Shown in pieces: positions 3,261 through 29,450 of a DNA stretch of 32,000 bases (position 1 is the stretch's first letter; every line of letters starts with the position of its first letter). The stretch covers positions 1,357,436-1,389,435 of the forward strand of contig NC_003902.1 of assembly GCF_000007145.1 (NCBI RefSeq), given 5' to 3'. The translations under genes were made by a program, and so were the position numbers. The stretch comes from Xanthomonas campestris pv. campestris str. ATCC 33913. Lineage in GTDB: Bacteria > Pseudomonadota > Gammaproteobacteria > Xanthomonadales > Xanthomonadaceae. The notes beneath the pieces were generated by a model, which was not told where the DNA came from, did not search any database, and saw only the letters and a program-made list of their open reading frames with translations.

Positions 3261-3627
3261 TGAGCGGGTAGAGGGGTGGCACGCGGCGGCGATGCGCCCC
3301 TGTTCGCGCTGTGCCGGACGTTGGCTCAGCCGGCGTTTATGCGCAGCGCGCTTGCACGAAGCAGGCGTGACGTTTGCAGTTTTTGCCGGCAAATCCGGCC
3401 GTTTTGCAGCGCTTTGCAAGAGTGTGCTGCCGGGCCTTGAATACCCGGCACCTATGTAACGATGGATGTAACGCTGGGATCTGTTGCCTGAGAAGGCCGG
3501 CCTGTGCCGCCGGCGCGGCGCGTACGTGCGCGGTCCGTGGCTTGCGGCTATCCTTTCCGGCTCGCATTGCCACCCAGGCAGGCGTGTCCGAGGATGGACG
3601 CGGCCGCCAAGGACACGACGACCGATC

Positions 3628-5502: not shown

Positions 5503-5524
5503 GCGCCGGATCAAAGGACGCGTC

Positions 5525-7849
5525 ATGGAAATCTGGAACTGGGTGGAAAAACTGCAGGACGATCTGGGCGAAGCCGGGCAGCCGCAAAATGCGCAGCTGC
5601 TGACACGCCTGACCGATCACATCTGCGATCTGCAGATCGAGCGTGCCGAGGCGCTATTGCCGGAGGCGCGCGCGCTGGGCAAGACCCTGGCCAACCCGTG
5701 GCTGGAAGTGTTCGTCGGGCATTGGGAAATGCGCAACCGGGTGGGCAACCTGTGCGAGGGCGAACGTGCGTTGGGCGATGCGGTGTCGCTGTTCGAACGC
5801 GCGCACCGCCCCGATGCGGTGGAATGCCCGCAGTCGGTGTGTGTGACCCAGGACCTGGCGGCGTGTTACGCCAACATCGATGGCCCGGGCTGGGTGCAAG
5901 AGCGCATCGAGGTATGCGAAGAAACCCTGGCGCGCATCGACCCCAGCTGGTCGTGCTACCAGTGCCTGAGCTGCGAAAAGGCCGACGCCTTGCTCGACGA
6001 TGGCCGCGGCGATGCGGCGCTGGCGTATCTGGAGCAGCAGTCGGGAACCATCCTGGCGCACGGCGGCGAGATCTACGACGGCGTGCCGGACATGCGTATC
6101 TCGATCCTGCTGGCGCTGGGCCGCGCTGCCGAGGCGCTGGAACTGGTCGAGCAGCGCGAGCGCGAGGCTGCGCGCGAAGGCGCGGAGTGGGCCAACTGCA
6201 GCCAGCCGCGTCAGTTGCAGAAAACCCGCGCGCTGGCCTTGTTGGGGCGCGACGAAGAGGCCATGCAGGCCCTGCTGCTGTGGCGCGATGTGGCGCCGCG
6301 CTATCGCCTGCACTGGTTGCGTGCGGTGGCGGTGCTGGTGTCGCGCGCGCCCGAGCGCAACAGCTGGGACCTGGGCAGCCGCGTGCAGACCATGCTGGAC
6401 CACTACGCGCAGGTGGGTGCGCACCGCATCTTGATCGAAGCAGCGGAGCTTGCGATCGGGATGGCCTTGCAGCGCGGCGCGGTGTGGACCGCGCGCCGGC
6501 ACCTGGCGCTGGCCCGCGCGCATGTGCCCAGGCTGCGGCTGGACCGTGGCGCCACCGAGTTGCTGAACACCCTGGCCGCACGCATCGATGCGGCGCCGGT
6601 GAGCGCGCCGCCGCCGGCGCCCGCCGACCAGTTGCTGGCGTGGTTGTCCGCGCAGGACCAGGAGTCCGCGCGCAATCCGGAACAGGAAGCGCAGTGGTTG
6701 CTGCAGGCAGTGGCCGAGCGGCCCGACGATGCCGAACTGGTGGACACCACCGCATCGGCCTTGAGCGCATGCGCAGCCGATGAAGACGCGATCGCCTTGC
6801 TGTGGCAGTTCGTGCAGCGGCACGCCGATCGCGAAACCAGCCCCACGTTCCGGCTGATGAATCTCTTGCTCGGCCGTGGCGACGAGGCCAGCGTGTGCCG
6901 TCTGGCGCAGCTGTATCGTGCCCAGGTGCCGGTGGCGGCGTTGTGGTGCGAAGCGCAGCTGGCACAGCGGCTGGCCGACTGGCCCGCGCTGGAGCAGGCC
7001 TGCGCCGCATTGCTGGCGCTCTCGCCGAGCTCGCACGGTGCGCGCGGGCTGTTGGCGCGCATGTACCTCAACACCGGGCGTTTCGCCGAGTCGGCCGACG
7101 TCTATCGGCAGCTGACTGAGCTACTGGAAGAACCACGCTCGGCATATTGGGACCACATGACCGCCGCCAGTGCGGCGCAGGACTGGGACGCAGTGCGTGC
7201 CTGCGCGCAGGCAATCGGCATGGAGTTGAGCAGCACCAGTGGCGTGGTCGAGGAGACCTGGGGCTGGGTGATCATCCGCTGCATCGAAGACGGCGAAGTG
7301 GCCGAGTATTACGCGCGCCGCACCGGGCCGGTGACCGCACGCATCGTTGAAAATGCGCCGTCGCAGCGCCGCCAGCACGTGGGCGACTGGGTGGTGTTCG
7401 ACGCGGAGCTGGTGTATCCGCCGCCGGAGGATGAAGCCGAACGCGCACGCTTCGTGCCGACCTATCCGCAGGTGCATGTGCTGCAGGCCGGCGGCTACGG
7501 CAACAGCTGGCTGGTGGATGGCGTGCATCCGGGCGAGCCGGCGATCGACGCCTTGCGCAAGGACATTGAAGCGCGTGGGTGGACGCTGTGGGTGCACAGC
7601 CGCGACGACTATCGCCTGATCGATCCGGACAATGCAGATGCCTTCGATGCGGAAGACCCGCAGTCCGGATTGCCGGGCGTGCTGTTCACCGTCGCCCTGC
7701 CGGAGGCAGTGCCACCGCTGGAACTGCACCGCGCGCTGGTGATGGCGACGGCCGGCTGGCCGCACCGCATGTGCTGGATGCGGCTTGCCGAAGCCTGCGA
7801 CCAGGACACCACCCCGCATATGCAGGCGATCGAGCGCTACGGTCTGTAA
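5525..7849 (+). CDS. Uncharacterised 774-aa protein: Ala/Leu-rich helical-repeat (TPR-like) body, N-proximal 7-Cys cluster, distinct C-terminal domain of about 200 aa
   Basis: ORF 5468..7849. The ATG at 5525 is preceded by AAAGGA and lies 22 nt after the upstream stop. Coding is supported by length and by the following terminator. I recognise no family signature. The TPR-like call rests only on repeated helix-turn-helix-looking A/L/R/E-rich segments. Confidence 0.75.
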   Translation: MEIWNWVEKLQDDLGEAGQPQNAQLLTRLTDHICDLQIERAEALLPEARALGKTLANPWLEVFVGHWEMRNRVGNLCEGERALGDAVSLFERAHRPDAVECPQSVCVTQDLAACYANIDGPGWVQERIEVCEETLARIDPSWSCYQCLSCEKADALLDDGRGDAALAYLEQQSGTILAHGGEIYDGVPDMRISILLALGRAAEALELVEQREREAAREGAEWANCSQPRQLQKTRALALLGRDEEAMQALLLWRDVAPRYRLHWLRAVAVLVSRAPERNSWDLGSRVQTMLDHYAQVGAHRILIEAAELAIGMALQRGAVWTARRHLALARAHVPRLRLDRGATELLNTLAARIDAAPVSAPPPAPADQLLAWLSAQDQESARNPEQEAQWLLQAVAERPDDAELVDTTASALSACAADEDAIALLWQFVQRHADRETSPTFRLMNLLLGRGDEASVCRLAQLYRAQVPVAALWCEAQLAQRLADWPALEQACAALLALSPSSHGARGLLARMYLNTGRFAESADVYRQLTELLEEPRSAYWDHMTAASAAQDWDAVRACAQAIGMELSSTSGVVEETWGWVIIRCIEDGEVAEYYARRTGPVTARIVENAPSQRRQHVGDWVVFDAELVYPPPEDEAERARFVPTYPQVHVLQAGGYGNSWLVDGVHPGEPAIDALRKDIEARGWTLWVHSRDDYRLIDPDNADAFDAEDPQSGLPGVLFTVALPEAVPPLELHRALVMATAGWPHRMCWMRLAEACDQDTTPHMQAIERYGL

Positions 7850-9996: not shown

Positions 9997-10839
9997 ATGG
10001 TGGCATTGCAGCAGCGCACGATCGATGCGATTCGTGGCCAGGAAGGCGGCTTGTTGTCGGCATGGCTGGGCTCCAGCCTGACCGCCGATGCGCGCATTTC
10101 GCACAAGGATGCACAGGCGCAGGGCGCCGACTTTCTGCGCTTGCTGGCGGCTTCGTTGAAGGACGGCGGCAGCAGCCTGGACAGTGCCGAATGGAGCGAA
10201 GTGCGCCGGTTCCTGGAGAACCTCTCGCGTGACCGCGCCACCCGTGGTTTCGATTCGCAGGAAACCGCCAACTTCCTCTTCTCGCTCAAGCGCGCGCTGT
10301 TTGAACTGGTGCAGCGCGAATACGCCGATACGCCGGAAGAACTCGGCCACCAGCTGTGGGCGCTGTCCGAGCTGATGGACGCGCTGGGCCTGCACACCAT
10401 CAAGGCGTTCCAGAAAACCCGCGAAGACATCATTGCGCGCCAGCAGGAAGAGATGCTGGAGCTGTCCACCCCGGTGGTGAAGTTGTGGGAAGGCGTGCTG
10501 GCGCTGCCGATGATCGGCACGCTGGATTCGCAGCGCACCCAGGTGGTGATGGAATCGCTGCTGCAGCGCATTGTCGATACCGGTTCGGAAATCGCCATCA
10601 TCGACATCACCGGCGTGCCCACCGTGGACACCCTGGTTGCCCAGCACCTGCTCAAGACCGTTACCGCCATCCGCCTGATGGGCGCCGATGCGATCATCAG
10701 CGGTGTGCGCCCACAGATTGCACAGACCATCGTGCATCTGGGCCTGGACCTGCAGGGCATCGTGACCAAGGCCAACCTGGCCGATGCGTTGGCGTTGGCG
10801 CTCAAGCGCACCGGCGTGACCGTGAGCAAGGCGGGCTGA
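9997..10839 (+). CDS. rsbR: Stressosome scaffold/sensor RsbR: N-terminal non-haem globin-like sensor plus C-terminal STAS
   Basis: 280 aa. STAS region: ELSTPVVKLWEGVLALPMIGTLDSQRTQVVMESLLQRIVDTGSEIAIIDITGVPTVDTLVAQHLLKTV...GADAIISGVRPQIAQTIVHLG. This is the classic RsbR pattern, followed by RsbS and RsbT. Confidence 0.85.
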   Translation: MVALQQRTIDAIRGQEGGLLSAWLGSSLTADARISHKDAQAQGADFLRLLAASLKDGGSSLDSAEWSEVRRFLENLSRDRATRGFDSQETANFLFSLKRALFELVQREYADTPEELGHQLWALSELMDALGLHTIKAFQKTREDIIARQQEEMLELSTPVVKLWEGVLALPMIGTLDSQRTQVVMESLLQRIVDTGSEIAIIDITGVPTVDTLVAQHLLKTVTAIRLMGADAIISGVRPQIAQTIVHLGLDLQGIVTKANLADALALALKRTGVTVSKAG

Positions 10840-10840
10840 C

Positions 10841-11203
10841 ATGGAGCGCATCCCGATCCTGCGGATGGGTGATCTGTTGCTGGTCACCATCCAGGTGGAC
10901 ATGCACGACCAGCTGGCGCTGACCCTGCAGGAAGACCTGTCGGAAAAGATCAGCGCCACCTCTGCGCGCGGCGTGTTGATCGACATCTCCGCGTTGGACA
11001 TCGTCGACTCCTTCATCGGCCGCATGATCAGCACCATCTCCGGGCTGGCGGCGATCATGGATGCCAAGACCGTGGTGGTGGGCATGCAGCCGGCGGTGGC
11101 GATCACGCTGGTTGAGCTGGGGCTGACCCTGCCCACCGTGCGCACCGCCTTGAATGTCGAGCGCGGCATGCGGCTGCTACAGCAACCTGTGCTCGATCCA
11201 TGA
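10841..11203 (+). CDS. rsbS: Stressosome STAS protein RsbS
   Basis: 120 aa, single STAS domain: IPILRMGDLLLVTIQVDMHDQ...GVLIDISALDIVDSFIGRM...VVVGMQPAVAITLVELG. The conserved phosphorylatable Ser lies in the DIVDSF context. It starts 1 nt after the rsbR stop. Confidence 0.85.
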   Translation: MERIPILRMGDLLLVTIQVDMHDQLALTLQEDLSEKISATSARGVLIDISALDIVDSFIGRMISTISGLAAIMDAKTVVVGMQPAVAITLVELGLTLPTVRTALNVERGMRLLQQPVLDP

Positions 11204-11601
11204 GCACGCCGGCTGGCTCGCAACCGGTGCGTACCGAGCAGGACGTGGTGATGGCGCGGCAGACCGTGCGCAAGCTGGTGGTGCAATGCGGCCTGCGCCT
11301 GGTCGACCAGACCAAGCTGGTCACCGCGGCCAGCGAACTGGCGCGCAATACCGTGATCTACGGTGGCGGCGGCGACATGGACTGGGCGCTGGTGGAGAGC
11401 GGCATCCGCAAGGGCGTGCAGCTGACCTTCCGCGACGAAGGCCCGGGCATCCCCAATCTGGACCTGGCGCTGACCGACGGCTGGACCTCCGGCAGCGGCC
11501 TGGGCCTGGGCCTGTCCGGCAGCCGTCGGCTAGTGGACGATTTCGTGCTGGACAGCGCGCCCGGCAAGGGCACGCGGATCACCATCACCAAATGGAAGTG
11601 A
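11200..11601 (+). CDS. rsbT: Stressosome switch Ser/Thr kinase RsbT (GHKL)
   Basis: 133 aa: LVTAASELARNTVIYGGGG...FRDEGPGIPNLDLAL...GSGLGLGLSGSRRLVDDF...GKGTRITITKW. ATGA start/stop overlap with rsbS (11200..11203). Confidence 0.85.
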   Translation: MSTPAGSQPVRTEQDVVMARQTVRKLVVQCGLRLVDQTKLVTAASELARNTVIYGGGGDMDWALVESGIRKGVQLTFRDEGPGIPNLDLALTDGWTSGSGLGLGLSGSRRLVDDFVLDSAPGKGTRITITKWK

Positions 11602-12602
11602 CGTTTGCAGGTGCGCCGACCCGGTCGATTCGTCTAGACGACGCAAGCCAGGTCGGGCAGGCACGCCGCGAAGCGGTGGCCCTGGCGCAGGCATTGGCGC
11701 TGGATGAGGCCAGCTGTGGGCGCGTGGCGCTGGTGGCCACCGAGTTGGCCACCAATGTGCTCAAGCATGGGCGTGGCGGCTGCGTGCAGCTGTCGCCGGT
11801 GGCCGGGCGCGCCGGCGTTGGCGTGGAGTTGTGCACGCTCGACAACGGCCCCGGATTTGCGCTTTCGCAGTGCCTGCGCGATGGCTATTCCACCTCCGGC
11901 ACGCCGGGCACCGGGCTGGGCGCGATCCACCGCCAGGCGCAGCTGCTGGATGCCTATTCCGATGCGAAGGGCGCCATTGTGGTGGCGCGCGTGTTTGCGC
12001 AGCAAGGCGCTGCCCAGGACCTGGCGTACGGCGCGCTGCGTGTGCCGATCCACAACGAAACCGTGTGCGGCGATGCCTGGCATCTGCAGATCCGCGAGGC
12101 GCGTGCCACGGTAACGGTGATCGACGGGCTTGGCCACGGTGCCGGTGCAGCGGAGGCGGCAGACGCCGGCACCCACGCGGCCGCGGCGGCCACCGGCGAG
12201 CCCGGCGAGCGGGTCACGCGCCTGCATGCCGCCATGTCCGGCACGCGTGGCGGCGCGGCAGCGGTGGCGCAGTTCGATAGCCGCAGCGGGCAGGTCCGCT
12301 TTGCCGGCGTGGGCAATATCGCGGCCGCGCTCTGCGACGGCGATGGCGTGCGCGGCATGCCATCGCATCCGGGCATCGTGGGCGTGCAGTTCCGCAAGGC
12401 GCAGCCATTCGATTTTCCACAGGCCACCGGCAAGCTGCTGGTGATGCACAGCGACGGGCTGCAATCGCGCTGGAATCTGCGCGATCATCCGGGTCTGCTG
12501 TCGCGCCATCCGCGCATCATCGCCGCACTGTTGGTGCGCGATCACGACCGCGGCCGCGACGATTGCAGTGTGTTTGTCATGCGCTTGGGAGGCATGTCAT
12601 GA
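11592..12602 (+). CDS. Fused RsbW-like anti-sigma-type kinase domain plus SpoIIE/PP2C phosphatase domain
   Basis: Reading frame of ORF 11154..12602. The ATG at 11592 (or GTG at 11598) overlaps the rsbT stop. N-terminal half: VALVATELATNVLKHGRGG...LDNGPGF...GTGLGAIHRQA (HATPase_c). C-terminal half: CGDAWH...VIDGLGHGAGAAEAA...LLVMHSDGL...RDHDRGRDDCSVFV (PP2C/SpoIIE pattern). Confidence 0.75.
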   Translation: MEVTFAGAPTRSIRLDDASQVGQARREAVALAQALALDEASCGRVALVATELATNVLKHGRGGCVQLSPVAGRAGVGVELCTLDNGPGFALSQCLRDGYSTSGTPGTGLGAIHRQAQLLDAYSDAKGAIVVARVFAQQGAAQDLAYGALRVPIHNETVCGDAWHLQIREARATVTVIDGLGHGAGAAEAADAGTHAAAAATGEPGERVTRLHAAMSGTRGGAAAVAQFDSRSGQVRFAGVGNIAAALCDGDGVRGMPSHPGIVGVQFRKAQPFDFPQATGKLLVMHSDGLQSRWNLRDHPGLLSRHPRIIAALLVRDHDRGRDDCSVFVMRLGGMS

Positions 12603-13477
12603 GTCACGCAAATGAGGTTCCCGCCATCGACGCGATGGCTGAACTGGAGAGCTTGCGCCAGCAGAATCAGGCGCTGCGCGAGGAACTGGACGAAACCAAC
12701 CAGGGCGTGCTGGCGCTGTATGCCGAGCTGGATCAGCAGGCTGAGCAATTGCGCGACGTGTCCGAGCTCAAGAGCCGGTTTCTGTCGTACATGAGCCACG
12801 AATTCCGCACGCCACTGGGCTCGATCCTGAGCATTACCCGGCTGCTGGAAGACGGCATGGATGGCCCGCTCAACGCCGAGCAGCTCAAGCAGGTGCGCTT
12901 TGTCAGCGCGTCCACGCGCGAGCTCAGCGAAATGGTGGACGACCTGCTGGACCTGGCCAAGATCGAAGCCGGGCGGGTCACCATCTCGCCGGGCTGGTTC
13001 GATCTGATGGATCTGTTTGCGGCCTTGCGCGGCATGTTCCGCCCGCTCACCGACGCCAACCGCACCACCTTGATCTTCGAAGATCCGCCGGTGTTGCCGA
13101 TGCTCTACACCGACGACAAGAAGCTGGCGCAGATCCTGCGCAACTTCATTTCCAACGCGCTCAAGTTCACCCCGCAAGGCCATGTGCGCGTGTTCGCGCA
13201 ACTGCAGGGCGACACCCACGTGCGCTTCAGCGTGCAGGACACCGGCATTGGGATCCCGGCCGAACTGCACGACGCGCTGTTCGAGGATTTCGTGCAGGTG
13301 GATTCGCCACTGCAGAAGCGCCTCACCGGCACCGGCCTGGGCCTGTCGATCTGCAAGCGCTTTGCCGAGTTGCTGGGCGGCACCGTGGGCATCAACAGCG
13401 TGGTCGGGCAGGGCTCGGAATTTTTCGTGGTATTGCCGGTGACGCTGGCGCCGCAGCAGGAGGATGGTCTTGCCTAG
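12599..13477 (+). CDS. Soluble histidine kinase with no sensor or TM domain (coiled coil + HisKA + HATPase_c)
   Basis: The ATG at 12599 forms an ATGA overlap with the upstream stop. About 45 aa of coiled coil (ELESLRQQNQALREELDETNQGVLALYAELDQQAEQL) is followed by the H-box SRFLSYMSHEFRTPL, N-box LRNFISNALKFT, and G-boxes DTGIGI / GTGLGLSI. Confidence 0.85.
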   Translation: MSHANEVPAIDAMAELESLRQQNQALREELDETNQGVLALYAELDQQAEQLRDVSELKSRFLSYMSHEFRTPLGSILSITRLLEDGMDGPLNAEQLKQVRFVSASTRELSEMVDDLLDLAKIEAGRVTISPGWFDLMDLFAALRGMFRPLTDANRTTLIFEDPPVLPMLYTDDKKLAQILRNFISNALKFTPQGHVRVFAQLQGDTHVRFSVQDTGIGIPAELHDALFEDFVQVDSPLQKRLTGTGLGLSICKRFAELLGGTVGINSVVGQGSEFFVVLPVTLAPQQEDGLA

Positions 13478-15404
13478 CAGTCATCGGATTCTGGTAGTGG
13501 ACGACAACGCGGTCACCCGCTACTCGGTGCGGCGCGTGCTCGAACACCACCAGTTCGTGGTCGAAGAAGCCGGGACCGGTGGCGAGGGGCTGGTGCGCCT
13601 GGCTGCCGAGGCATTTGCCGCCGTGGTGCTGGACGTCAACCTGCCGGACATGAGCGGCTTCGACATCGTGCGCACGCTGCGCGCCGAGCCGCGTACCGCG
13701 CTGCTGCCGGTGGTGCACGTCTCGGCGGCCTCGATTGCCACCGGTGACATGATCACCGGCCTGGACGCCGGCGCCGATGCCTACCTGATCCATCCGGTCG
13801 ACCCCAACGTGCTGGTCGCCACCTTGCGCACGCTGCTGCGCGCGCGCAATGCCGAAGAAGCGCTGCGGCTCAGCGAGGCGCGCTTTCGCGAAATCTTCGA
13901 GCACATCGGCGCGCCGATCGCGGTGGTCGATGCGCAGCTGCACACGCAGGAGGCCAATGCGGCGTTTCAGCGGCTGATCGGCAGCGCCACCCCATGCGAA
14001 GCGATCAACGTGCCCGGCCTGGACCAGTGCGCCACCGTGCAGGCCTTGACCGCCGCACTGGGCCGGCGCGAGCGCTGGAGCGGGACCTTGTCGATCCTGC
14101 GCGATGGCGCGGTGCGCGAGACCGAATGGCGGGTGTCGCCGTACCGCGAACCGGACCTGGGCCTGCTGTTTGTCGAAGACGTCACCGAGCAACGCCTGCG
14201 CGAGCGCGAGCAACGCCAGGAACTGGATACCGCCACCTCCGAGCTGGCGCATCAGATTGCCGAGCGCCAACGCACCGAAATCCAGCTGCTGCAGGCGCAA
14301 AAGATGGAAGCGCTGGGCAAGCTCACCGGCGGCATCGCGCACGACTTCAACAACCTGCTCACCAGCATCATTTCCGGCCTGGACATGATCCAGCTGGCGG
14401 TGGAATCCAACCGCATCGAACGCGTGCCACGGCTGGCGGAAATCGCCACCGGCTCGGCGCATCGCGCTGCTGCGCTGACCCAGCGCATGCTGGCGTTTGC
14501 ACGCAAGCAGTCGCTGGATGCGCAGCCGTTCGACGTCAATGCGCGGGTGCGCTCGCTGGAAGACATGCTGCGCCGTTCGATCGGCGAAAACATCGCACTG
14601 GAACTGCAGCTGGCGGAGGCGCCACTGGTGGCCATCGCCGATGCCAATCAACTGGAAAACGTGGTGCTCAACCTGGTCATCAACGCACGCGATGCGCTGC
14701 AGGGCCACGGCACCATCCGCATCCAGAGCGCGCCGCACACCGCCTACAACGACCCGGAGCTGGAGGACGGCGACTATGTCGCGGTGAACGTGATCGACGA
14801 CGGCAGCGGCATCGATCCGGCGATCCTGAGCCAGGTGTTCGAGCCGTTCTTCACCACCAAACCGATCGGCGAGGGCACCGGGCTGGGCTTGTCGATGACC
14901 TACGGGTTTGCGCGCCAGTCCGGCGGCACCGCACGCATCACCAGCACGCTGGGTAGCGGCACCACGGTGGCCTTGTTGTTGCCGCGCGGGCTGACCGTGG
15001 GCGAGGCATTGCCACCGCCGCCGCCGAATGCGCCGCGTGGGCGCTCGCAGCGCATCCTGCTGGTGGACGACACCGATGTGGTGCGCATGATGGTGAGCGA
15101 GGTGCTCAGCGATGCCGGGTACCACGTGATCGAGGCCGAAAACGCCGATGGCGCGCTGGCGCAGCTGCGCGCCGATGCACAGATCGACATGGTGGTGTCC
15201 GATGTCGGCCTGCCCGGCATGAACGGGCGCGACATGGCCGATGTGGCGCGTGATCTGCGCCCCGGGTTGCCGATCCTGTTCATCACCGGCTACGCCGAAA
15301 ATGCGGCCACCCGGCAGGAATTCCTCGCCGAAGGCATGGCGTTGCTGCCCAAGCCCTTCAGCCTCAACGACCTGCTCAATACCGTCAGCCGCATGCTGGG
15401 CTGA
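13464..15404 (+). CDS. Hybrid REC-PAS-HisKA-HATPase_c-REC sensor kinase/response regulator
   Basis: 646 aa. The ATG at 13464 is preceded by GCAGGAGG and overlaps the upstream gene by 14 nt. N-terminal REC: RILVVDDN...VVLDVNLPDMSGFD...YLIHPV. H-box: LGKLTGGIAHDFNNLL. ATPase: VINARDAL...DDGSGI...GTGLGLSM. C-terminal REC: RILLVDD...MVVSDVGLPGMNG...LLPKPF. Confidence 0.88.
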   Translation: MVLPSSHRILVVDDNAVTRYSVRRVLEHHQFVVEEAGTGGEGLVRLAAEAFAAVVLDVNLPDMSGFDIVRTLRAEPRTALLPVVHVSAASIATGDMITGLDAGADAYLIHPVDPNVLVATLRTLLRARNAEEALRLSEARFREIFEHIGAPIAVVDAQLHTQEANAAFQRLIGSATPCEAINVPGLDQCATVQALTAALGRRERWSGTLSILRDGAVRETEWRVSPYREPDLGLLFVEDVTEQRLREREQRQELDTATSELAHQIAERQRTEIQLLQAQKMEALGKLTGGIAHDFNNLLTSIISGLDMIQLAVESNRIERVPRLAEIATGSAHRAAALTQRMLAFARKQSLDAQPFDVNARVRSLEDMLRRSIGENIALELQLAEAPLVAIADANQLENVVLNLVINARDALQGHGTIRIQSAPHTAYNDPELEDGDYVAVNVIDDGSGIDPAILSQVFEPFFTTKPIGEGTGLGLSMTYGFARQSGGTARITSTLGSGTTVALLLPRGLTVGEALPPPPPNAPRGRSQRILLVDDTDVVRMMVSEVLSDAGYHVIEAENADGALAQLRADAQIDMVVSDVGLPGMNGRDMADVARDLRPGLPILFITGYAENAATRQEFLAEGMALLPKPFSLNDLLNTVSRMLG

Positions 15405-22108: not shown

Positions 22109-23233
22109 TCAGGCAGCCAGGTTGCGCCGGCGCAGTTTGGCCTCGAACACCACGTCGCCGTCTTCGTTGCGCGCCTGCAAGGTGCCGCCATGCGCCTTGA
22201 CGAACTGATCAGCGATGAATAACCCCAACCCCAGCCCCTGGCTGGCATGGAAGCTGGCCTTGAATGGTTCGAACAACCGCGGCATCAAGGTGTCGGGGAT
22301 GTGGCCGGTGTTGCGCACCGACAGCCGCAGGGTGTCGTGTTCACGGCCATCCAGGTGCACCTGCACCGGGTGGCGCCCACCATGCAGCACCGCGTTGCCG
22401 ACCAGGTTGGACACCACCTGCGCCAGGCGGTCGCCATCGCCATCGCCGTCCAGGTCGCCTTCGGTGCGCAGCTCGATCGGCGTATGCGGGTTGGCCTGCG
22501 CCACTTCGCCCACCACGCTGTGCGCCACCTCGCCCAGGTTGCATGGGCCGAACTGCATCGACAGCCCGTCGGTACGCAGGCGCGAGAAATCCAGCAATTG
22601 TTCGACCATGCGCGCCATGCGCCGCGCGCTGTTTTCCAGATGCTCCAGCGTGCGCGCGGCCGAGCCGTCTTCGGGCACGTCCAGGCCGAGCTTGTCCGCG
22701 CACAGCAGAATCACCGACAGCGGCGTGCGCAGGTCGTGGGTGAGCACCGCCATCATGGTTTCGTTGAGCGTGAGCGCGCGCTCGAGCGAGGCATTGCGGG
22801 CCTTGAGCAGGCGCCGCTGTTGGTACAACTCGATGAACACGTTGACCTTGCTCAGGATCACGTGCGGTTCGATTGGCTTGTGCAGGAAATCCACCGCGCC
22901 GGTTTCATAGCCCTGAAACGCACGCATCGGGTCGTTCGGCGAGGCGGTCAAAAAGATGATCGGCACATGCCGGCTGCGCTGCGAACCGCGCATCAGCTCG
23001 GCCAGCGAAAAGCCGTCCATCTCCGGCATGTGCACATCCAGCAATGCCAGTGCCACATCGTGTTCGAGCAGCAGCTCCAGCGCCTGCGCACCGGAAGCCG
23101 CGCACAGCACCTGGATCCCCTCGCGTTGCAGCAGCGCTTCCATGGCCACCAGGTTCTGCGGCACATCGTCGACGATCAGGATCTTGGCGGGTTCGTCGCT
23201 GCGGGCGGCGGCGCTGGTCGCGGTGAGGTTCAT
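22109..23233 (-). CDS. Response-regulator/histidine-kinase fusion (REC-HisKA-HATPase_c)
   Basis: Start MNLTATS at 23233, with an ATGA overlap with the cheB-like stop; 374 aa. REC: KILIVDDVPQNL...LALLDVHMPEMDGFS...FLHKPI. H-box: MMAVLTHDLRTPLS. ATPase: VSNLVGNAVLHG...GLGLGLFIADQFVKAHGG. Confidence 0.85.
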   Translation of the reverse strand: MNLTATSAAARSDEPAKILIVDDVPQNLVAMEALLQREGIQVLCAASGAQALELLLEHDVALALLDVHMPEMDGFSLAELMRGSQRSRHVPIIFLTASPNDPMRAFQGYETGAVDFLHKPIEPHVILSKVNVFIELYQQRRLLKARNASLERALTLNETMMAVLTHDLRTPLSVILLCADKLGLDVPEDGSAARTLEHLENSARRMARMVEQLLDFSRLRTDGLSMQFGPCNLGEVAHSVVGEVAQANPHTPIELRTEGDLDGDGDGDRLAQVVSNLVGNAVLHGGRHPVQVHLDGREHDTLRLSVRNTGHIPDTLMPRLFEPFKASFHASQGLGLGLFIADQFVKAHGGTLQARNEDGDVVFEAKLRRRNLAA

Positions 23234-23817
23234 GCGTGAAAGGCTTCCAGTCGGCTGCAGATCGCCTGCAGGGTGAGCACCGCATCGGCGCCGGCATGGG
23301 CGAGCGCGGAGGCGGGCATCAGGGGAGATGCGGCATCGTCGGGGCGCTGGATCCACGCGCTTCCGCCGGCAGTGCGCACCGCGGCCACGCCGGCACTGCC
23401 GTCGCTGCTGGCACCGGTGAGCAGGATCGCGAGCAGCCGCTGGCCGAACACATCGGCAGCCGATTCGAACAACGGGTCGATCGCCGGGCGCGAGAACAGC
23501 ACCGGTGCATCCATCGACAATGCCAGGCTGTCGCGGCCTTCCACCAGCAGGTGATAGTCCGGCGGCGCGATGGTCACCGTGCCGGGCTGCAGCGGTTGTT
23601 TGTCGATGGCTTCGCGCACCGGCAGCGCGCAGCGCGCATCCAGCAGCTCGGCCACCTGGCTGGGGCGGTCGCGCGGCAAATGCAGCACCACCAGCACCGG
23701 CATCGGCAGCGTGGCCGGCAGGCCGGACAACAGCGTCTGCAATGCCATCACGCCACCGGCGGAAGCGCCGATCACGATGGCATCGAATTCCAGATACTGC
23801 GGCGTGGCCGGGCTCAT
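23230..23817 (-). CDS. cheB: CheB-type protein-glutamate methylesterase/deamidase, catalytic domain only (no REC)
   Basis: 195 aa: FDAIVIGASAGGVMALQTLLSGLP...PVLVVLHLP...TIAPPDYHLLVE...SRPAIDPLFESAA...LLAILLTGASSDGSAG. ATGA overlaps occur at both ends. Confidence 0.85.
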   Translation of the reverse strand: MSPATPQYLEFDAIVIGASAGGVMALQTLLSGLPATLPMPVLVVLHLPRDRPSQVAELLDARCALPVREAIDKQPLQPGTVTIAPPDYHLLVEGRDSLALSMDAPVLFSRPAIDPLFESAADVFGQRLLAILLTGASSDGSAGVAAVRTAGGSAWIQRPDDAASPLMPASALAHAGADAVLTLQAICSRLEAFHA

Positions 23818-24638
23818 GCGGCCTTCCGGTACAACCGCTGCTCGCGCGCACAGGTTTCGAAGGCCTGTGCATGGGCGCCGAACTGCAGCGACTCCTTGCT
23901 ACCCAGCCCCAGGAAGCCACGGTGCACCAGCGCATCGTAGAACAGGCCCACCGCGCGATCCTGCAGGCTGCGGTTGAAATAGATCAGCACGTTGCGGCAC
24001 GACACCAGATGCACTTCGGAGAACACCGTGTCGGTGGCCAGGCTGTGATCGGCGAACACGATATTGCGCTTGAGCCGGCGGTCGAACACCGCGCCGTCGT
24101 AGGCGGTGGTGTAGTAGTCCGACAACGAACCGCGGCCGCCAGCGTCCAGATAGTTGCGGCTGAACTGGGCAATGCGGTCGATGCCGTAGGCGCCGGCCTC
24201 GGCCATGTTCAGTGCTTCGGGATTGATGTCGGTGGCGTAGATCACCGCGCGCTCCAGCAGGCCTTCTTCGTGCAGCAGGATCGCCAGCGACCAGACCTCT
24301 TCGCCGGTGCTGCAGCCGGCCACCCACAGCTTGATCGACGGATAGGTGCGCAACACCGGTACGGCGTGTTCGCGCAATACCCGAAAATACGCCGGGTCGC
24401 GAAACATTTCCGAGACCTGCACGGTAAAGAACTGCATTGCCTGGGCAAAGGTGTCCGGCTCGTGCAGCAAGCGGTGCTGCAGATCGGCCACGCGCGCGCA
24501 GTCGAAGCGGCCCATGGCGTGGCGCATGCGCCGGCGCAACGACGACACCGCGTAATCGCGAAAATCGTAGTGGTAGCGCTGGTAGACCGCTTCCAGCAGC
24601 ACGCGCAGCTCCAGGTCGAACAGCTCCACTTCAGTCAT
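23814..24638 (-). CDS. cheR: CheR-type protein-glutamate O-methyltransferase
   Basis: Start MTEVELF at 24638, with an ATGA overlap with the upstream kinase stop; 274 aa. FTVQVSEMFRDPAYF...IKLWVAGCSTGEEVWSLAILLHEEGL...IYATDINPEAL...LVSCRNVLIYF. Confidence 0.88.
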   Translation of the reverse strand: MTEVELFDLELRVLLEAVYQRYHYDFRDYAVSSLRRRMRHAMGRFDCARVADLQHRLLHEPDTFAQAMQFFTVQVSEMFRDPAYFRVLREHAVPVLRTYPSIKLWVAGCSTGEEVWSLAILLHEEGLLERAVIYATDINPEALNMAEAGAYGIDRIAQFSRNYLDAGGRGSLSDYYTTAYDGAVFDRRLKRNIVFADHSLATDTVFSEVHLVSCRNVLIYFNRSLQDRAVGLFYDALVHRGFLGLGSKESLQFGAHAQAFETCAREQRLYRKAA

Positions 24639-27600
24639 TGCCGCGAGCACCACACCCGGCACAGCGACACCAGCTTGTCCACGTCGATGGGCTTGGCGAT
24701 GTAGTCGTTGGCGCCGGCCTGCAGGCAGTGTTCGCGGTCGTCGGCCATCGCCTTGGCGGTCAGCGCGATGATCGGCAGGTCTTGCCACTGGCGGTTGGCG
24801 CGGATCTGGCGCATCGCGGTGATGCCATCCATCTCCGGCATCATGATGTCCATTAGCACGAGGTCCACTTCGTGCTTGGCCAGGTGCTCCAGCGCCTCGC
24901 GGCCGTTGCGGGCGATCTGCAGGGTGACGCCCAGCGGTTCGAGCACGCTGGACAGCGCGAAGATGTTGCGCACATCGTCTTCGGCCAGCAGCACGGTGGC
25001 GCCATCGAGCACCGCATCGCGGCGGCGCGCTTCGCGCAGCAGGCGCTGCTGGTCGCTGGGCAGCGAGGCTTCCACGCTGTGCAGGAACAAGGTCACCTCA
25101 TCGAGCAGGCGCTCGGGCGAACGCACGCCCTTGATGATGATGCTCTTGGAGTAGCGGCGCAGGCGTTGTTCTTCGTCGCGGGTGAGCGCACGGCCGGTGT
25201 AGACGATCACCGGCGGGAAGGCCACCGCATCGTTGCCGGCCATGCGTTCGAGCAGGTCGTAGCCGCTGCCGTCGGGCAGGGCCAGGTCGGTGACCATGCA
25301 ATCGAATGTGGCGCTGCCCAGTTGGTCCATCGCCTCGGCAATGGTGCCGACTGCGACGATCTCCAGCTGATCGCGGGCCAGCAGCAGTTCCAGGTTGGCG
25401 CGCAGCGCGCTGTCGTCTTCGACGATCAACAGGCGGCGCAGTGCGCGGGCGTTGGTTTCTTCCAGCTGGCGGATCGCCCCGGCGAGCAGTTCGCGGGTGG
25501 CCGGCTTGATCAGGTAGCCCACCGCACCCAGCTCCAGCGCAATCTGGCTGCGCTCCAGCGCCGAGACCACGTGCACGGGGATGTGTCGGGTAGCCGGGTT
25601 GCGCTTGAGCCGCTCCAGCACGCTCAGGCCGGAGGCATCGGGCAGGCCGATGTCGAGCAGGATGCCGCTGGGGCGCAGTTCGGCGGCCAGCCGCAGCGCT
25701 TCTTCGGCATTGGGCGCCACCACACAATCGAAATCGAGCTCGTGCGCCAGGTCGACCAGGGCCTGCGCAAAGCGGGTTTCATCTTCCACCGCCAGGATCA
25801 GGCGGCCGGGGCGGGTGCGCTGATCGCGGTCATCCTCGGCGCGCACGCTCGGTGCCGCGTTGCTGGCAGGCGTTGTTACCGGCGCAGCACTGATTACGGC
25901 GGATGTGCGCGCTGCAAAGAGCTGCGTGGTGTCGCTGCGCGGGGTGGGCGCGAGGTGCGTCGCCGGTGCAGCAGCCGGGGCAGCTGCGTCGGCAGGTGCG
26001 CCGTCCACGGGCAATTCCAGGGTGAAGCAGCTGCCACGTCCGGGCTCGCTGTCCACGCTGATGCTGCCGCCCATGCGCAACGCCAGGTCGCGCGAGATCG
26101 ACAAACCCAGCCCGGTGCCGCCATAGCGCCGGCGGGTGCTGCCATCGGCCTGGCGGAACGCTTCGAAGATCACCTCGCTCTGCTCGCGCGCAATGCCGAT
26201 GCCGGTATCGCACACCACAAAGCGCACGCGCCCATTGCCGTGCGATTGCACCGCCAGGCTGACCTGGCCGTGCTCGGTGAACTTGATCGCATTGGCCAGC
26301 AGGTTCTTGAGGATCTGCTGCAGGCGCTGGTTGTCCACCACCAATTGCGTCGGCGCGGCGGCGTCGGCGCTGATCTCCAGCTGCAGGCCTTTCTGCCGCG
26401 CCAGTGGTTCGAAGGTGTCGCGCAGGCGCTGCACCACCGAGCTCATCGCCACGGTGTCGTCCGACAATTCCACATGCCCGGCTTCGATCTTGGACAGATC
26501 CAGGATGTCGTTGATCAGCGCCAGCAGATCGTTGTTGGACGAATGAATCGCCTGCGCGTACTTCACCTGCTCGGCGGTGAGCGTGTGGTCCTTGTTGTCG
26601 GCCAGCAGCTTGGCCAGGATCAGCGAGCTGTTGAGCGGGGTGCGCAACTCGTGCGACATGTTGGCCAGGAATTCGGACTTGTAGCGCGACGCGGTGGACA
26701 GCTCGTTGCTGTTGCGCACCAGTTGCCCCTGCGCCACCAGCAAGGCCTGTTTTTGCGCCTCCAGTGCCTGGGTGCGTTCTTCCAGCTGCACGTTGGTCTG
26801 TTCCAGTTCGGCCTGCTGCTGTTCCAGATCGCTCTGTGACTGCTGCAGGCTGCGGCTCTGTTCTTCCAGTTCCTCATTGGCCACGCGCAGTTCTTCCTGC
26901 TGCGTCTGCAATTCCTCGCTCTGCCGCTGGGTTTCTTCGAGCAGGCTCACCAATTGGGCGCGCAGCAGCGCGGTGCGCAGGGCAACGCCGATGTTCTCGC
27001 CGCAGCGGGCGAGCAGCTCTTCTTCGCGGGTGGCGGCCGTGCCCGGCGCGCCCGTGCGGCCCAGCTCGACGATGCCGATGATGCGGCCGTCGGCAGTGAC
27101 TGGCGCCAGCAGCAATTCCTGGCAATCGCTCTTGCCCAGGCTCGAGGCAATCTGCAGGTGCCCGGCATCCACGCCACGCACGCGGCGCACGCTGCCGCGC
27201 TGCAGGGTTTCGCCCAGCTGGCCGAGGTTGGTGGGCAGGGTGCTTGGTACGTCCTCGGCCAGCGCGGCGCCGCCGGTCAGGCGCAGGCGCTCGCCTTCCA
27301 GCCGATACAGCGCGCCAACTTGCGCTTCCAGCGTGTCGCACAGGGCGCGCACGGCGGCATCGGCCAGCGCTTCCGGGCTCTGGTCGCCGCGTAGGCTCGC
27401 TTCGACGGTGTTTTCGGCCTGCTGCAGCCACAGCGCGGTTTCGGCCTGGCGGCGGGCGCGGATCGCCTGCATCACCACCAGCGCCATGGCCAGAAAGGAG
27501 ATGCCGCCGATGCTGCGGTTGACCGAGGAGAAACTCGAATTGGTGCTGGACGGGGCCAGGTGGAAACCGATTGCCAGCAACACGCACGACAGCACGCCCA

Positions 27601-27775
27601 CCACCAGCGGCACGCGCACATGGTTCTGGAACACGGTGACGCCGACGGCGACAAAGTAGGTGAGCCACACCGCGTACCCCAGCGGCGTGACCAGTTCCAC
27701 CCCCAACGTGCCGGCCATCAACCCTGCTGCGATCACCCAGATCCAGCGGTCGCGCGAGGTCGTGATGTTCTGCAT
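24635..27775 (-). CDS. Membrane-anchored hybrid sensor kinase: about 4 TM helices, GAF, Q/E-rich coiled coil, HisKA, HATPase_c, then three REC domains
   Basis: ORF 24635..27832. ATG at 27775 (MQNITTSRDRW...) gives 1046 aa; TTG at 27832 is possible. No clear SD precedes either start. H-box: FLANMSHELRTPLNS. ATPase: LKNLLANAIKFT...DTGIGI...GTGLGLSISR. REC domains: LILAVEDE...ILLDIGLPDASG...LIKP; LLIVEDD...MVTDLALPDGSG; VLLAEDD...VLMDIMMPEMDG...YIAKPI. Confidence 0.85.
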   Translation of the reverse strand: MQNITTSRDRWIWVIAAGLMAGTLGVELVTPLGYAVWLTYFVAVGVTVFQNHVRVPLVVGVLSCVLLAIGFHLAPSSTNSSFSSVNRSIGGISFLAMALVVMQAIRARRQAETALWLQQAENTVEASLRGDQSPEALADAAVRALCDTLEAQVGALYRLEGERLRLTGGAALAEDVPSTLPTNLGQLGETLQRGSVRRVRGVDAGHLQIASSLGKSDCQELLLAPVTADGRIIGIVELGRTGAPGTAATREEELLARCGENIGVALRTALLRAQLVSLLEETQRQSEELQTQQEELRVANEELEEQSRSLQQSQSDLEQQQAELEQTNVQLEERTQALEAQKQALLVAQGQLVRNSNELSTASRYKSEFLANMSHELRTPLNSSLILAKLLADNKDHTLTAEQVKYAQAIHSSNNDLLALINDILDLSKIEAGHVELSDDTVAMSSVVQRLRDTFEPLARQKGLQLEISADAAAPTQLVVDNQRLQQILKNLLANAIKFTEHGQVSLAVQSHGNGRVRFVVCDTGIGIAREQSEVIFEAFRQADGSTRRRYGGTGLGLSISRDLALRMGGSISVDSEPGRGSCFTLELPVDGAPADAAAPAAAPATHLAPTPRSDTTQLFAARTSAVISAAPVTTPASNAAPSVRAEDDRDQRTRPGRLILAVEDETRFAQALVDLAHELDFDCVVAPNAEEALRLAAELRPSGILLDIGLPDASGLSVLERLKRNPATRHIPVHVVSALERSQIALELGAVGYLIKPATRELLAGAIRQLEETNARALRRLLIVEDDSALRANLELLLARDQLEIVAVGTIAEAMDQLGSATFDCMVTDLALPDGSGYDLLERMAGNDAVAFPPVIVYTGRALTRDEEQRLRRYSKSIIIKGVRSPERLLDEVTLFLHSVEASLPSDQQRLLREARRRDAVLDGATVLLAEDDVRNIFALSSVLEPLGVTLQIARNGREALEHLAKHEVDLVLMDIMMPEMDGITAMRQIRANRQWQDLPIIALTAKAMADDREHCLQAGANDYIAKPIDVDKLVSLCRVWCSRQ

Positions 27776-27898
27776 GGAGGTGTGGACCAAACTGGGAGGG
27801 CGGTCATGGTAGCCGATAAATTTCACACGCAAATCGCCGGTTTTTTGACGGATTTACAGCCGTGTTGGCTTGCACATTGCCTTCACGGCTCCGTCACT

Positions 27899-29095
27899 AT
27901 GTTCGCGCGCTTTTCCGGGGGAAACCGCGCGATGGATGCGGAAACGGCCGTGGACAGCGTTGGGCCGCTTTCTTACGACAGCCGGCAATGCCATCTGTTG
28001 GTGCAGAGCGTGTCCGACTACGCGATCTATCTGCTGGATACCGCGGGCTTCGTGCGTAGCTGGAATCCCGGTGGCGAGCGCATCAAGGGCTACAGCGCCG
28101 ACGAAGTGCTCGGCACGCATTTCTCGCGGTTCTATCTGCCCGAAGACGCCGAGCGTGGCGAGCCTGCGCGATCGCTGGACACGGCGTTGCGCGAAGGACG
28201 CTTTTCCGCCGAGGGCTGGCGCCTGCGCAAGGATGGCAGCCGCTTCCGGGCCAGCGTGGTGATCGAGCCGGTGCGCGAGCATGGCGTGCTGATCGGCTTT
28301 GCCAAGGTCACCCGCGACATCACCGAGCGCCATGAAGCTCAGCAGTTGCTTCAGCACGCGCAGCAGGCGTTGCTGCAATCGCAGAAAGTCGAAGCGCTGG
28401 GACGCCTGACGCTGGGTTTGGCGCACGATTTCAACAACCTGTTGACCGTGATGGTGACCAGCCTGGACCTGATCGCGCTGCGCGCCGGCGAGGATGCACG
28501 CACGCGCATGCTGGTGGAGGCCGCGCAGACCGCGGTGGATCGTGGCACCTTGCTGACCCGGCAGTTGCTCGCCTTCGCCCGTGGACAACGGTTGGTGCCC
28601 GAGCGCCACGCACCCGCGGCGGTGGTGGAGCGCTCGCTCGAATTGCTGCGGCGCGCCTGCCCGGCCGGCATCAGCCTGCGCGTGGACTTTGCCGATGCGC
28701 TGCCCGACGTACGCGTGGACCCCGGCCAACTGGAGGCAGCCTTGCTCAACCTGGTGTTCAACAGCTGCGATGCGATGCCTGCCGGCGGCAGCATCGTGCT
28801 CTCTGCGTCCACGCAACAGCGCGCGCCGCTGGACGACCCGCACGGCTCCGCGCGCGCCTATGTCGGCATCGCCGTCAGCGACACGGGCCCGGGCATGTCT
28901 GCGCAGGTGGCGCAGCGTGCGAGCGAGCCGTTCTTTACCACCAAGGAAGTCGGCAAGGGCTCCGGCCTGGGGTTGAGCCAGGTGCACGGGTTTGCCGCGC
29001 AATCCGGCGGCTTTGTCGATCTGCAGACCGCGCCCGGCCGCGGCACCACCGTGACCCTGTTGCTCCCGGCGATTCTGGAGGCCGAGCATGACTGA
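27899..29095 (+). CDS. Cytoplasmic PAS-domain histidine kinase
   Basis: Frame of ORF 27560..29095. ATG at 27899 (MFARFSG...); ATG at 27935 is an alternative. PAS: VQSVSDYAIYLLDTAGFVRSWNPGGERIKGYSADEVLG...RKDGSRFRASVVIEPV...FAKVTRDITERH. H-box: LGRLTLGLAHDFNNLL. ATPase: NSCDAM...DTGPGM...GSGLGLSQV. Confidence 0.85.
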   Translation: MFARFSGGNRAMDAETAVDSVGPLSYDSRQCHLLVQSVSDYAIYLLDTAGFVRSWNPGGERIKGYSADEVLGTHFSRFYLPEDAERGEPARSLDTALREGRFSAEGWRLRKDGSRFRASVVIEPVREHGVLIGFAKVTRDITERHEAQQLLQHAQQALLQSQKVEALGRLTLGLAHDFNNLLTVMVTSLDLIALRAGEDARTRMLVEAAQTAVDRGTLLTRQLLAFARGQRLVPERHAPAAVVERSLELLRRACPAGISLRVDFADALPDVRVDPGQLEAALLNLVFNSCDAMPAGGSIVLSASTQQRAPLDDPHGSARAYVGIAVSDTGPGMSAQVAQRASEPFFTTKEVGKGSGLGLSQVHGFAAQSGGFVDLQTAPGRGTTVTLLLPAILEAEHD

Positions 29096-29450
29096 TTCCC
29101 TGCGCTTGCTGATGGTCGAAGACCAACAGGAACTGCGCGATCTCATCGGCGAAGCGCTGCGCGACGCCGGCATCACCGTCGATACCGCCGACGATGGCCA
29201 CTGCGCGCTGCGCATGCTGCGCGAGAACGGCCCCTACGACGTGGTGTTCAGCGACATCCGCATGCCCAACGGCATGTCCGGTATCGAACTGAGCGAACAG
29301 GTGAGCCAGTTGCTGCCGCAGGCACGCATCATCCTGGCCTCGGGCTTTGCCAAGGCACAGTTGCCGCCGCTGCCGGCCCAGGTGGATTTCCTGCCAAAAC
29401 CCTATCGCCTGCGCCAGCTGATCGGCCTGTTGAAGGGCGAGGGCGGCTGA
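29088..29450 (+). CDS. Single-domain (REC-only) response regulator
   Basis: 120 aa: LRLLMVEDQQELRDLI...YDVVFSDIRMPNGMSG...IILASGF...FLPKPY. It overlaps the kinase gene by 8 nt. Confidence 0.85.
   Translation: MTDSLRLLMVEDQQELRDLIGEALRDAGITVDTADDGHCALRMLRENGPYDVVFSDIRMPNGMSGIELSEQVSQLLPQARIILASGFAKAQLPPLPAQVDFLPKPYRLRQLIGLLKGEGG

Follow-up and report, generated by a model that had tools for sequence, protein, structure and literature searches.

A stretch of 32,000 nucleotides from Xanthomonas campestris pv. campestris ATCC 33913 (NC_003902.1, positions 1,357,436 to 1,389,435; hereafter the window) contains a minus-strand operon in which the genes for CheR and CheB, two enzymes of chemotaxis families, lie between those of two histidine kinases: a CfcA-like hybrid histidine kinase (HHK) and a kinase with its own receiver (REC) domain (REC-HK). 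Comparison with related loci suggests that the four genes travel together as a cassette and points to a long helix of HHK as the candidate substrate of CheR. The features of the operon are as follows.

24635..27775, minus strand: HHK, CfcA-like hybrid histidine kinase of 1046 amino acids (translation, Pfam, public gene calls)
27461..27775, minus strand: N-terminal membrane region of HHK, residues 1 to about 105, with four hydrophobic stretches (sequence inspection by eye; no Pfam match)
26978..27376, minus strand: GAF domain of HHK, residues 134-266 (PF01590/PF13185)
26600..27031, minus strand: continuous predicted helix of HHK, residues 249-392, joining the last GAF helix, the coiled coil and DHp helix 1 (AlphaFold2)
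26759..26941, minus strand: coiled-coil core of HHK, residues 279-339, LLEETQRQSEELQTQQEELRVANEELEEQSRSLQQSQSDLEQQQAELEQTNVQLEERTQALE, candidate methyl-accepting segment (alignment A1 and column table, see below)
26003..26680, minus strand: kinase core of HHK, HisKA 366-433 and HATPase_c 481-591 (Pfam)
26651..26653, minus strand: codon of the phospho-accepting His375 of HHK, in the H-box YKSEFLANMSHELRTPLN, which is identical across the family
24656..25801, minus strand: three REC domains of HHK, about residues 659-772, 781-897 and 926-1040 (Pfam Response_reg, three stretches)
23814..24638, minus strand: CheR, 274 amino acids (CheR_N and CheR, PF03705 and PF01739)
23230..23817, minus strand: CheB, 195 amino acids, a stand-alone catalytic domain (PF01339 only, no REC)
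22109..23233, minus strand: REC-HK, a CfcD-like REC-HisKA-HATPase_c kinase of 374 amino acids (Pfam; downstream of CheB in most related loci)

The arrangement agrees in every coordinate with the first-pass annotation of the window, which had described four minus-strand genes with ATGA overlaps at their three junctions. On that strand, ATGA at 24638..24635 makes the stop codon TGA of the HHK gene overlap the ATG of the CheR gene, and the same four letters join CheR to CheB at 23817..23814 and CheB to REC-HK at 23233..23230; the HHK gene begins with ATG at 27775, and the stop codon of REC-HK ends at 22109. Given that such 4-nt overlaps are the commonest gene junction in bacteria and an ordinary sign of translational coupling, they are unremarkable in themselves; the CheR/CheB overlap is seen again in many related loci, and public gene calls around the identical CheR in several NCBI genomes give the same four genes with the same starts. 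The domain content described earlier (a membrane-GAF-kinase protein with three receivers, CheR, a CheB devoid of the regulatory receiver, and a REC-kinase) is borne out by Pfam, the membrane part having been read by eye; PF01339 is the sole domain in the 195 residues of CheB, and HHK has no Hpt domain. Scans for promoters and terminators gave nothing above shuffled sequence, and GC content at third codon positions alone did not separate the genes from antisense open reading frames (ORFs) in this 66% GC DNA.

As had also been claimed, Pfam and phmmer found no methyl-accepting chemotaxis protein (MCP), CheA or CheW in the 32 kb: there is none in the precomputed Pfam annotation of about 10 kb on either side of the operon, none according to Pfam among the long ORFs in the rest of the window, and no MCP or CheW among all window ORFs of at least 70 amino acids searched by phmmer with Tsr and CheW seeds, which detect CheW and CheA less well than MCPs. 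The Tsr seed does detect MCPs in four other loci.

A cassette that couples CheR to a hybrid kinase

A scan with a CheR alignment, taking one genome per species, yielded 80 loci in Proteobacteria, Verrucomicrobiota, Planctomycetota, Bdellovibrionota, Cyanobacteria, Bacillota, Bacteroidota, Gemmatimonadota, Deinococcota and Acidobacteriota. When the domains of these loci were read with hidden Markov models derived from the window and from three plasmid copies, almost all of the loci were found to encode a protein of the form [sensor]-GAF-coiled coil-kinase-REC-REC-REC, then CheR, CheB and a REC-kinase. The kinase architecture from GAF to the third receiver is common to about 70 loci, and the co-directional order of hybrid kinase, CheR, CheB and REC-kinase recurs here, in Pseudomonas (L015-L026) and in about 60 others. 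HHK of the window carries the features that define the cassette kinase, namely the GAF domain, the H-box FLANMSHELRTPLN and the C-terminal receivers, as judged by Pfam and by comparison of the H-box across the family. The expected acceptor aspartates (D708, D830, D976) and lysines (K757, K882, K1028) of the three receivers are invariant in alignment A1, a four-way HHK alignment spanning gamma- and alpha-proteobacteria.

The sensor end varies among members. HHK gives no Pfam match to CHASE3, a domain detected in relatives at E values of 1e-30 to 1e-42, and in A1 it lacks the approximately 100 residues that form CHASE3 in those relatives; the difference is one of sensor and not of cassette. In Xanthomonas and Stenotrophomonas this end consists of membrane helices only, and relatives carry CHASE3, 4HB_MCP_1, dCache with HAMP, or arrays of 6-13 HAMP domains, all modules of the chemoreceptor type. 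The arrays, with 6 to 13 tandem HAMP domains before GAF, are found in a member of the Gemmatimonadota (L059, 2853..7784), a cyanobacterium (L064, 3904..7716) and Deinococcus (L070, 4903..7842).

The association of CheR with the kinase is strong in whichever direction it is read. Among 83 loci chosen by CheR similarity alone, 74 extend at least 3.6 kb upstream, and in 70 of the 74 a kinase with the family H-box lies immediately upstream of CheR on the same strand; all but one of these 70 kinases (69/70) contain the EEL heptad motif described below. Conversely, we took the best 60 plasmid matches to the kinase in a tblastn search with the coiled coil, in which the E/Q-rich half of the coil was masked as low complexity and the matches rest on the distal coil and the H-box. 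A CheR lies 2-3 kb away on the same record in 49 of the 60; the 11 remaining matches comprise seven with CheR immediately downstream and four solo kinases, giving CheR downstream of the kinase in 56 of 60. Co-localization is 93-95% in both directions. Moreover, of 88 sources searched by phmmer, only four have an MCP within 10 kb according to the Tsr seed, in each case more than 6 kb distant and encoded on the other strand; CheW, for which sensitivity is limited, was found in that range in none of the 88.

The cassette also occurs on conjugative plasmids. A tblastn search of plasmids with CheR matched 331 records at E values up to 1e-20 and 83 at E values up to 1e-60, with copies in alpha- and beta-proteobacteria that are 55-63% identical to the query. 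The four genes are bordered by insertion sequence elements and unrelated genes in plasmids of Allorhizobium, Rhizorhabdus and Pseudochrobactrum. By these comparisons of gene content and context, the cassette is self-contained and mobile.

Departures from the common layout form a few recurrent classes. CheB follows CheR in 66 of 81 loci, with absences mainly in Bacillota and Deinococcus. The Bacillota loci without CheB consist of the kinase, CheR and usually a REC-kinase (L045, L049, L050, L058, L067, L072, L074, L078, L079, L081, L083, L084); other loci of this kind belong to Deinococcus (L070, L089) and Sphingobium (L095). Six Bacillota kinases of about 900 residues have a single receiver (L072, L074, L079, L081, L083, L084), and the others keep two or three. 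The solo kinases (L088, 6660..10115; L096; L097; L098) reside on Caballeronia/Burkholderia megaplasmids among metabolic genes. Three further loci (L013, L043, L068) have CheR, CheB and then a REC-kinase, which in L043 is a 1280-residue REC-PAS(x4)-PAS_10-kinase devoid of the EEL motif, and one (L048) has CheR only. A 'NEEL' repeat like that of the family may occur in CheB-CheR-PAS kinase fusions; L043 is the only CheR-CheB locus here in which a PAS_10 kinase follows. On plasmid 2 of D. deserti, a sensor diguanylate cyclase follows the cassette.

A conserved acidic coiled coil in the kinase

Between GAF and HisKA, the sequence is almost invariant in A1 (ETQRQxEELQxQxEELRVxNEELEEQ...LEQQQxELEQTNxQLEE), and the unit QQEELRxxNEELEEQ occurs one to three times across the family. 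AlphaFold2 predicts one unbroken helix through His375 (model residues 29-172), with pLDDT of 97-98 over HHK residues 270-360. The heptads of the coil core place Glu-Glu pairs at b-c, Leu at d and Asn or Gln at a, and their register is fixed relative to the active site: in 61 of 73 motif-bearing HHKs, from many phyla, all N[EQ][ED]L motifs stand at 5 mod 7 from the phospho-accepting His, 269 of 313 [EQ][EQ]L triads share one phase, and the coil varies in length between lineages by whole heptads. One core position is Leu in 79% of heptads, the second is Asn/Gln or Gln/Ser, and the two positions preceding Leu are mostly Glu (phases 3-4 being E-rich). A coil of this composition has a polar core and an acidic surface and should be only marginally stable. 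The pairs at 287/288, 294/295 and 301/302 are spaced by heptads along the exposed face of a long predicted helix. A helical hairpin, resembling the four-helix bundle of MCPs, was considered and rejected, as AlphaFold2 returns one unbroken helix and the motifs keep one heptad phase.

Conservation was measured as mean pairwise identity over 20 relatives and in a column table of 22 sequences; these 20-22 sequences span six groups, namely four proteobacterial classes, Verrucomicrobiota and Planctomycetota. The GAF domain (0.38) is the least conserved folded part of HHK; the receivers score 0.60-0.72, the CA domain 0.65 and DHp 0.82. The coil core reaches 0.76 and its surface positions b, c, e, f and g 0.73, compared with 0.38 for the surface of the adjoining distal coil. 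E295, E301, E302, E318 and E323 are identical in 22 of 22 sequences. Such conservation of a coil surface implies a conserved macromolecular partner, and the only constant companions are CheR and, usually, CheB.

Against Pfam, the coiled coil matches only generic eukaryotic coiled-coil families, below their cut-offs, and MCPsignal with a non-significant E value of 0.11. A word-index search with the 97-residue coiled coil returned short fragments only; in the precomputed annotation of three of these (P0002, P0003, P0006, matching the window at 26759..26941) we noted the family PF28019.1, which may already describe this helix.

The CheR and CheB enzymes

Both enzymes look catalytically active by sequence. 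CheR scores 120.7 and 37.8 bits against PF03705 and PF01739 (cut-offs of 27), keeps the S-adenosylmethionine motif, and has R80 and Y220, invariant in the CheR alignment A2, aligned with R98 and Y235 of Salmonella CheR (1BC5/1AF7). The basic helix SLRRRMR of its N-domain is also kept; in Salmonella CheR, the basic N-terminal helix docks on the methylation helix. CheB scores 186.8 bits against PF01339, and its S18, H46 and D139 align with what we take to be the positions of the Ser-His-Asp triad in 3SFT and 6YMZ; 1CHD matches as well. In relation to the NCBIfam chemotaxis equivalogs, both fall far below the cut-offs (CheR 60.5 against 435 for the E. coli-type equivalog, CheB 141-142 against 293-342 for the CheB subfamilies), and they therefore represent a distinct subfamily.

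The CheR is 99% identical to that of X. campestris pv. raphani, and Xanthomonas and Stenotrophomonas versions are 83-86% identical. At E values up to 1e-30, the subfamily comprises about 982 of 31,755 CheR-like cluster representatives. A CheB without a receiver is the rule among the related loci. Fusions within the CheR subfamily include a CheR-REC-GGDEF-EAL protein (P0198), a CheB-CheR protein (P0161) and seven CheR-CheB proteins (P0167, P0180, P0200, P0218, P0226, P0232, P0281).

A predicted mechanism of kinase adaptation

The first-pass annotation had proposed that a kinase of the operon is itself the methylation substrate. This idea gains comparative support from the self-contained mobile cassette, the linkage between CheR and the kinase, and the conserved Glu-rich helix, and we retain it as a working proposal. 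Taken together, the sequence features point to residues of about 279-339 of the hybrid kinase, rather than to REC-HK, as the likeliest methyl acceptor.

Under this proposal, the membrane/GAF sensor would control the kinase through a metastable parallel coiled coil that leads into DHp, and CheR would methylate surface glutamates of the EEL repeats, the best candidates being the c-position residues E288, E295 and E302 and the e/f pairs E304/E305 and E332/E333. Methylation would neutralize charge and thereby stabilize or re-register the coil, shifting the on/off balance of His375 autophosphorylation, and CheB would remove the methyl groups. Because this CheB is devoid of a receiver and no CheA is present, feedback could be set by the conformation of the substrate helix, as it is in E. 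coli receptors, or by the three receivers of the kinase itself, rather than by CheA. The outcome would be adaptation or memory built into a two-component phosphorelay. Phosphoryl groups might pass to the receivers and the REC-kinase and on to an output regulator, in relatives often an enzyme of cyclic di-GMP (c-di-GMP) metabolism; REC-HK is likely a receiver-controlled second kinase in the relay to that regulator. That c-di-GMP enzymes are a common output is suggested by CfcA and CfcR of Pseudomonas putida (see below), the diguanylate cyclase adjacent to the Deinococcus cassette and the P0198 fusion.

We regard it as an evenly balanced question whether the locus is in fact a copy of an ancient self-contained cassette in which CheR and CheB adapt the kinase by methylation of its coil. 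A wider, somewhat more tentative proposition is that the family constitutes 'methyl-accepting histidine kinases', defined by an adaptation helix fused in phase to DHp and a dedicated CheR (usually with CheB), with no MCP arrays, CheA or CheW, present in more than ten bacterial phyla, spread by plasmids and often directed at a c-di-GMP output; here the balance tips slightly toward doubt.

Contrary evidence and alternative explanations

Several observations weigh against methylation of the coil. The four solo kinases, all from one Caballeronia/Burkholderia clade, have no CheR or CheB within 6 kb and still keep most of the motif, with the first EEL repeat intact and the second lacking several acidic residues (LANQKSELEQTN instead of LETQQAELEQTN), so that the EEL motif is not strictly dependent on adjacent enzymes. 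The CheB-less versions in Firmicutes, Deinococcus and some Sphingobium are awkward for a reversible adaptation cycle, and the four loci L013, L043, L048 and L068 encode the same CheR subfamily with no such kinase within 10 kb. Inspected by eye, the pairs 287/288, 294/295 and 301/302 do not conform to [ASTG][ASTG]xx[EQ][EQ]xx[ASTG][ASTG], which is reportedly the consensus of MCP methylation sites: they are flanked by Q, R, T, N, L or V, not by two small residues. Furthermore, the interchange of Glu and Gln among orthologs that is typical of MCP methylation sites is rare, the candidate positions being E in 20-22 of the 22 sequences and Q in at most two. Nor is the coiled coil uniquely conserved, since the whole kinase, including DHp and the receivers, is highly conserved, and DHp (0.82) exceeds the coil. 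Finally, the other cfc mutants of P. putida keep the CfcA-dependent phenotype, according to unpublished results of the authors (PMC4951495), so CheR and CheB would be modulators at most.

With respect to alternative targets, the two enzymes could act in trans, with conventional chemoreceptors from other parts of the genome as their substrates, the operon merely co-expressing adaptation enzymes. MCP genes are numerous in Xanthomonas genomes, the fold and the catalytic residues of both enzymes are canonical, and, as the coil misses the MCP consensus, a classical substrate would fit their ancestry. We nevertheless consider action in trans unlikely, given that 70 of 74 loci link the CheR subfamily to the kinase, that an MCP or CheW is essentially never found in the neighborhood, that the CheR score of 60.5 against the equivalog cut-off of 435 sets this subfamily apart as a distinct one, and that the cassette moves as a unit on plasmids and occurs in Deinococcus and Bacteroidota, which to our knowledge generally lack chemotaxis genes. 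In addition, a chemotaxis role of the P. putida counterparts CfcB and CfcC is reported as ruled out in the passage of PMC4951495 that cites Garcia-Fontana 2013. Another set of candidates comprises the receivers, whether the three of HHK, that of REC-HK or a neighboring single REC protein, in which methylation of acidic residues by CheR would tune phosphotransfer. Because CheR can modify a receiver protein in Salmonella, namely PhoP, according to the summary account in PMC8546571, the REC domains are a live alternative; they are conserved (0.60-0.72) and always present with CheR, and the cassette is often flanked by single-REC genes. What makes this target improbable in our estimation is that Firmicute versions keep CheR and the coiled coil with only one HHK receiver, that a long exposed helix bearing Glu pairs at heptad spacing is much closer to known CheR substrates than the surface of a globular REC domain is, and that CheR retains the basic helix that in Salmonella docks on the methylation helix.

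Conceivably, the coil is conserved solely as a signal wire or a docking site for receivers, and CheR and CheB have another target or serve as a non-catalytic scaffold. The motif of the Caballeronia solo kinases, largely kept with no CheR or CheB adjacent, the dispensability of CheB in several lineages and the even greater conservation of DHp would all fit this explanation. However, a plain structural coil needs only its a and d positions, whereas here b, c, e, f and g are near-invariant and the distal coil varies; conservation of the catalytic residues in the two enzymes extends across phyla, which argues for catalysis; and kinase and CheR co-localize at 93-95% in both directions. We accordingly think a purely structural role quite unlikely.

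Other genes in the window

Immediately upstream of the operon and divergent from it are two signaling genes, identified from gene calls, Pfam and NCBIfam.

27806..29095, plus strand: PAS-histidine kinase (PAS-HK)
29088..29450, plus strand: single-domain REC protein

The start codons of PAS-HK and HHK are only about 30 bp apart, and the promoters of both genes must therefore sit within coding DNA. Two Stenotrophomonas loci (L008, L009) share this divergent pair, and in Pseudomonas and beta-proteobacteria the cassette is flanked by single-REC genes; the pair is possibly associated with the cassette.

The window as a whole has an unusual density of signaling genes. A stressosome-like set on the plus strand consists of an RsbR-like protein (RsbRD_N and STAS, 9997..10839), a small STAS ORF (10826..11203) and a HATPase_c_2-SpoIIE fusion (11154..12602), and runs straight into a HisKA/HATPase kinase (12563..13477) and a REC-PAS-HK-REC protein (13464..15404), also on the plus strand. 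At 3484..7849 (plus strand), a paralog of the HSP90 family (NF010683, 273 bits with a cut-off of 455) is followed by an overlapping ORF of 793 amino acids that has no match in Pfam, NCBIfam or PADLOC; PADLOC found no defense genes among the upstream unknown ORFs.

Implications

By its gene content and order, the Xanthomonas locus is a further copy, with a CHASE3-less sensor, of an already known cassette. The first-pass annotation had called clusters of this type functionally unexplained. For the kinase this is too strong: the part played by CfcA in the activation of CfcR is published, and clusters of the bmsA type are linked to biofilm and motility. For the role and the substrate of the CheR/CheB pair, the statement stands.

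In textbooks, adaptation by methylation is what distinguishes chemotaxis from ordinary two-component signaling. If the proposed mechanism is correct, adaptation would amount to a transferable module that histidine kinases of soil, aquatic and plant-associated bacteria, and of their plasmids, can acquire, and the orphan CheR3 and CheB3 of Pseudomonas would be explained. The present analysis narrows the question of the substrate to a helix of 60 residues and about half a dozen glutamates. In the plant pathogen Xanthomonas, the pathway may govern biofilm or stress behavior, as its Pseudomonas homolog does.

Comparison with known systems

The closest characterized counterpart is cfcABCDE of P. putida, and, on the strength of gene order, domain architecture and H-box, the locus is the Xanthomonas ortholog of the cfcABCD part. 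In P. putida, the CHASE3/GAF hybrid kinase encoded by cfcA (PP_3761) is required for activation of the diguanylate cyclase CfcR, cfcB and cfcC are one of three CheR/CheB pairs (CheR3, CheB3), and cfcD carries a receiver (PMC4951495); the link from CfcA to CfcR and c-di-GMP is also described in PMC6849547. The mutagenic primer for CfcA H496A encodes ANMS(H>A)EL, the H-box of the window HHK (PMC4951495), and the reconstructed wild-type primer matches L016, L023 and L060 exactly and the P. putida locus L026 with two mismatches. The systems share the gene order, the GAF and hybrid architecture and the identical H-box, and the Pseudomonas loci of our sample have the same coiled-coil motif. They differ in that CfcA has a periplasmic CHASE3 domain, whereas the Xanthomonas HHK has membrane helices only, and in what lies beyond: CfcA activates a REC-GGDEF-EAL regulator, CfcR, and responds to salts, whereas no CfcR-like REC-GGDEF-EAL gene and no fifth, single-REC gene follows the Xanthomonas operon, nor is a REC-GGDEF-EAL gene found anywhere in the window. 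The bmsA cluster of P. alkylphenolica and genes 3082-3079 of P. brassicacearum, reported in the relevant part of PMC8175716 to comprise a kinase, CheR, CheB and a hybrid kinase and to affect biofilm and motility, are alike in gene content; the likeness is drawn from the published description, not from sequence. Our literature search, outside the scope of which lay most subscription journals, returned no paper that identifies the methylation substrate of this CheR/CheB pair.

Canonical chemotaxis and the cassette have in common the two families of enzymes, with catalytic residues retained, a long helix (here the proposed substrate) in which Glu pairs are spaced seven residues apart, and, in relatives of HHK, the same input modules as those of chemoreceptors. 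In contrast to chemotaxis, there is here no MCP, CheA or CheW, and the kinase is covalently joined, via DHp, to the receptor-like part. CheB has no receiver for CheA to phosphorylate, the MCP site consensus is absent, and the proposed structure is a parallel two-helix coil continuous with DHp instead of an antiparallel four-helix bundle.

The Wsp system (WspA, C, F, E, R) likewise employs CheR and CheB homologs for an output other than motility, often c-di-GMP (reviewed in PMC8846402). However, an MCP, CheW proteins and a CheA-type kinase are all present in Wsp and all missing from the cassette. A precedent for modification by CheR of a two-component protein other than a chemoreceptor comes from Salmonella, in which, according to the summary account in PMC8546571, CheR methylates the response regulator PhoP at E8/D9 and E107/E108. 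In that case a housekeeping chemotaxis CheR acts on a REC/DNA-binding regulator, whereas in the cassette a dedicated CheR is encoded together with the kinase that is its presumed target.

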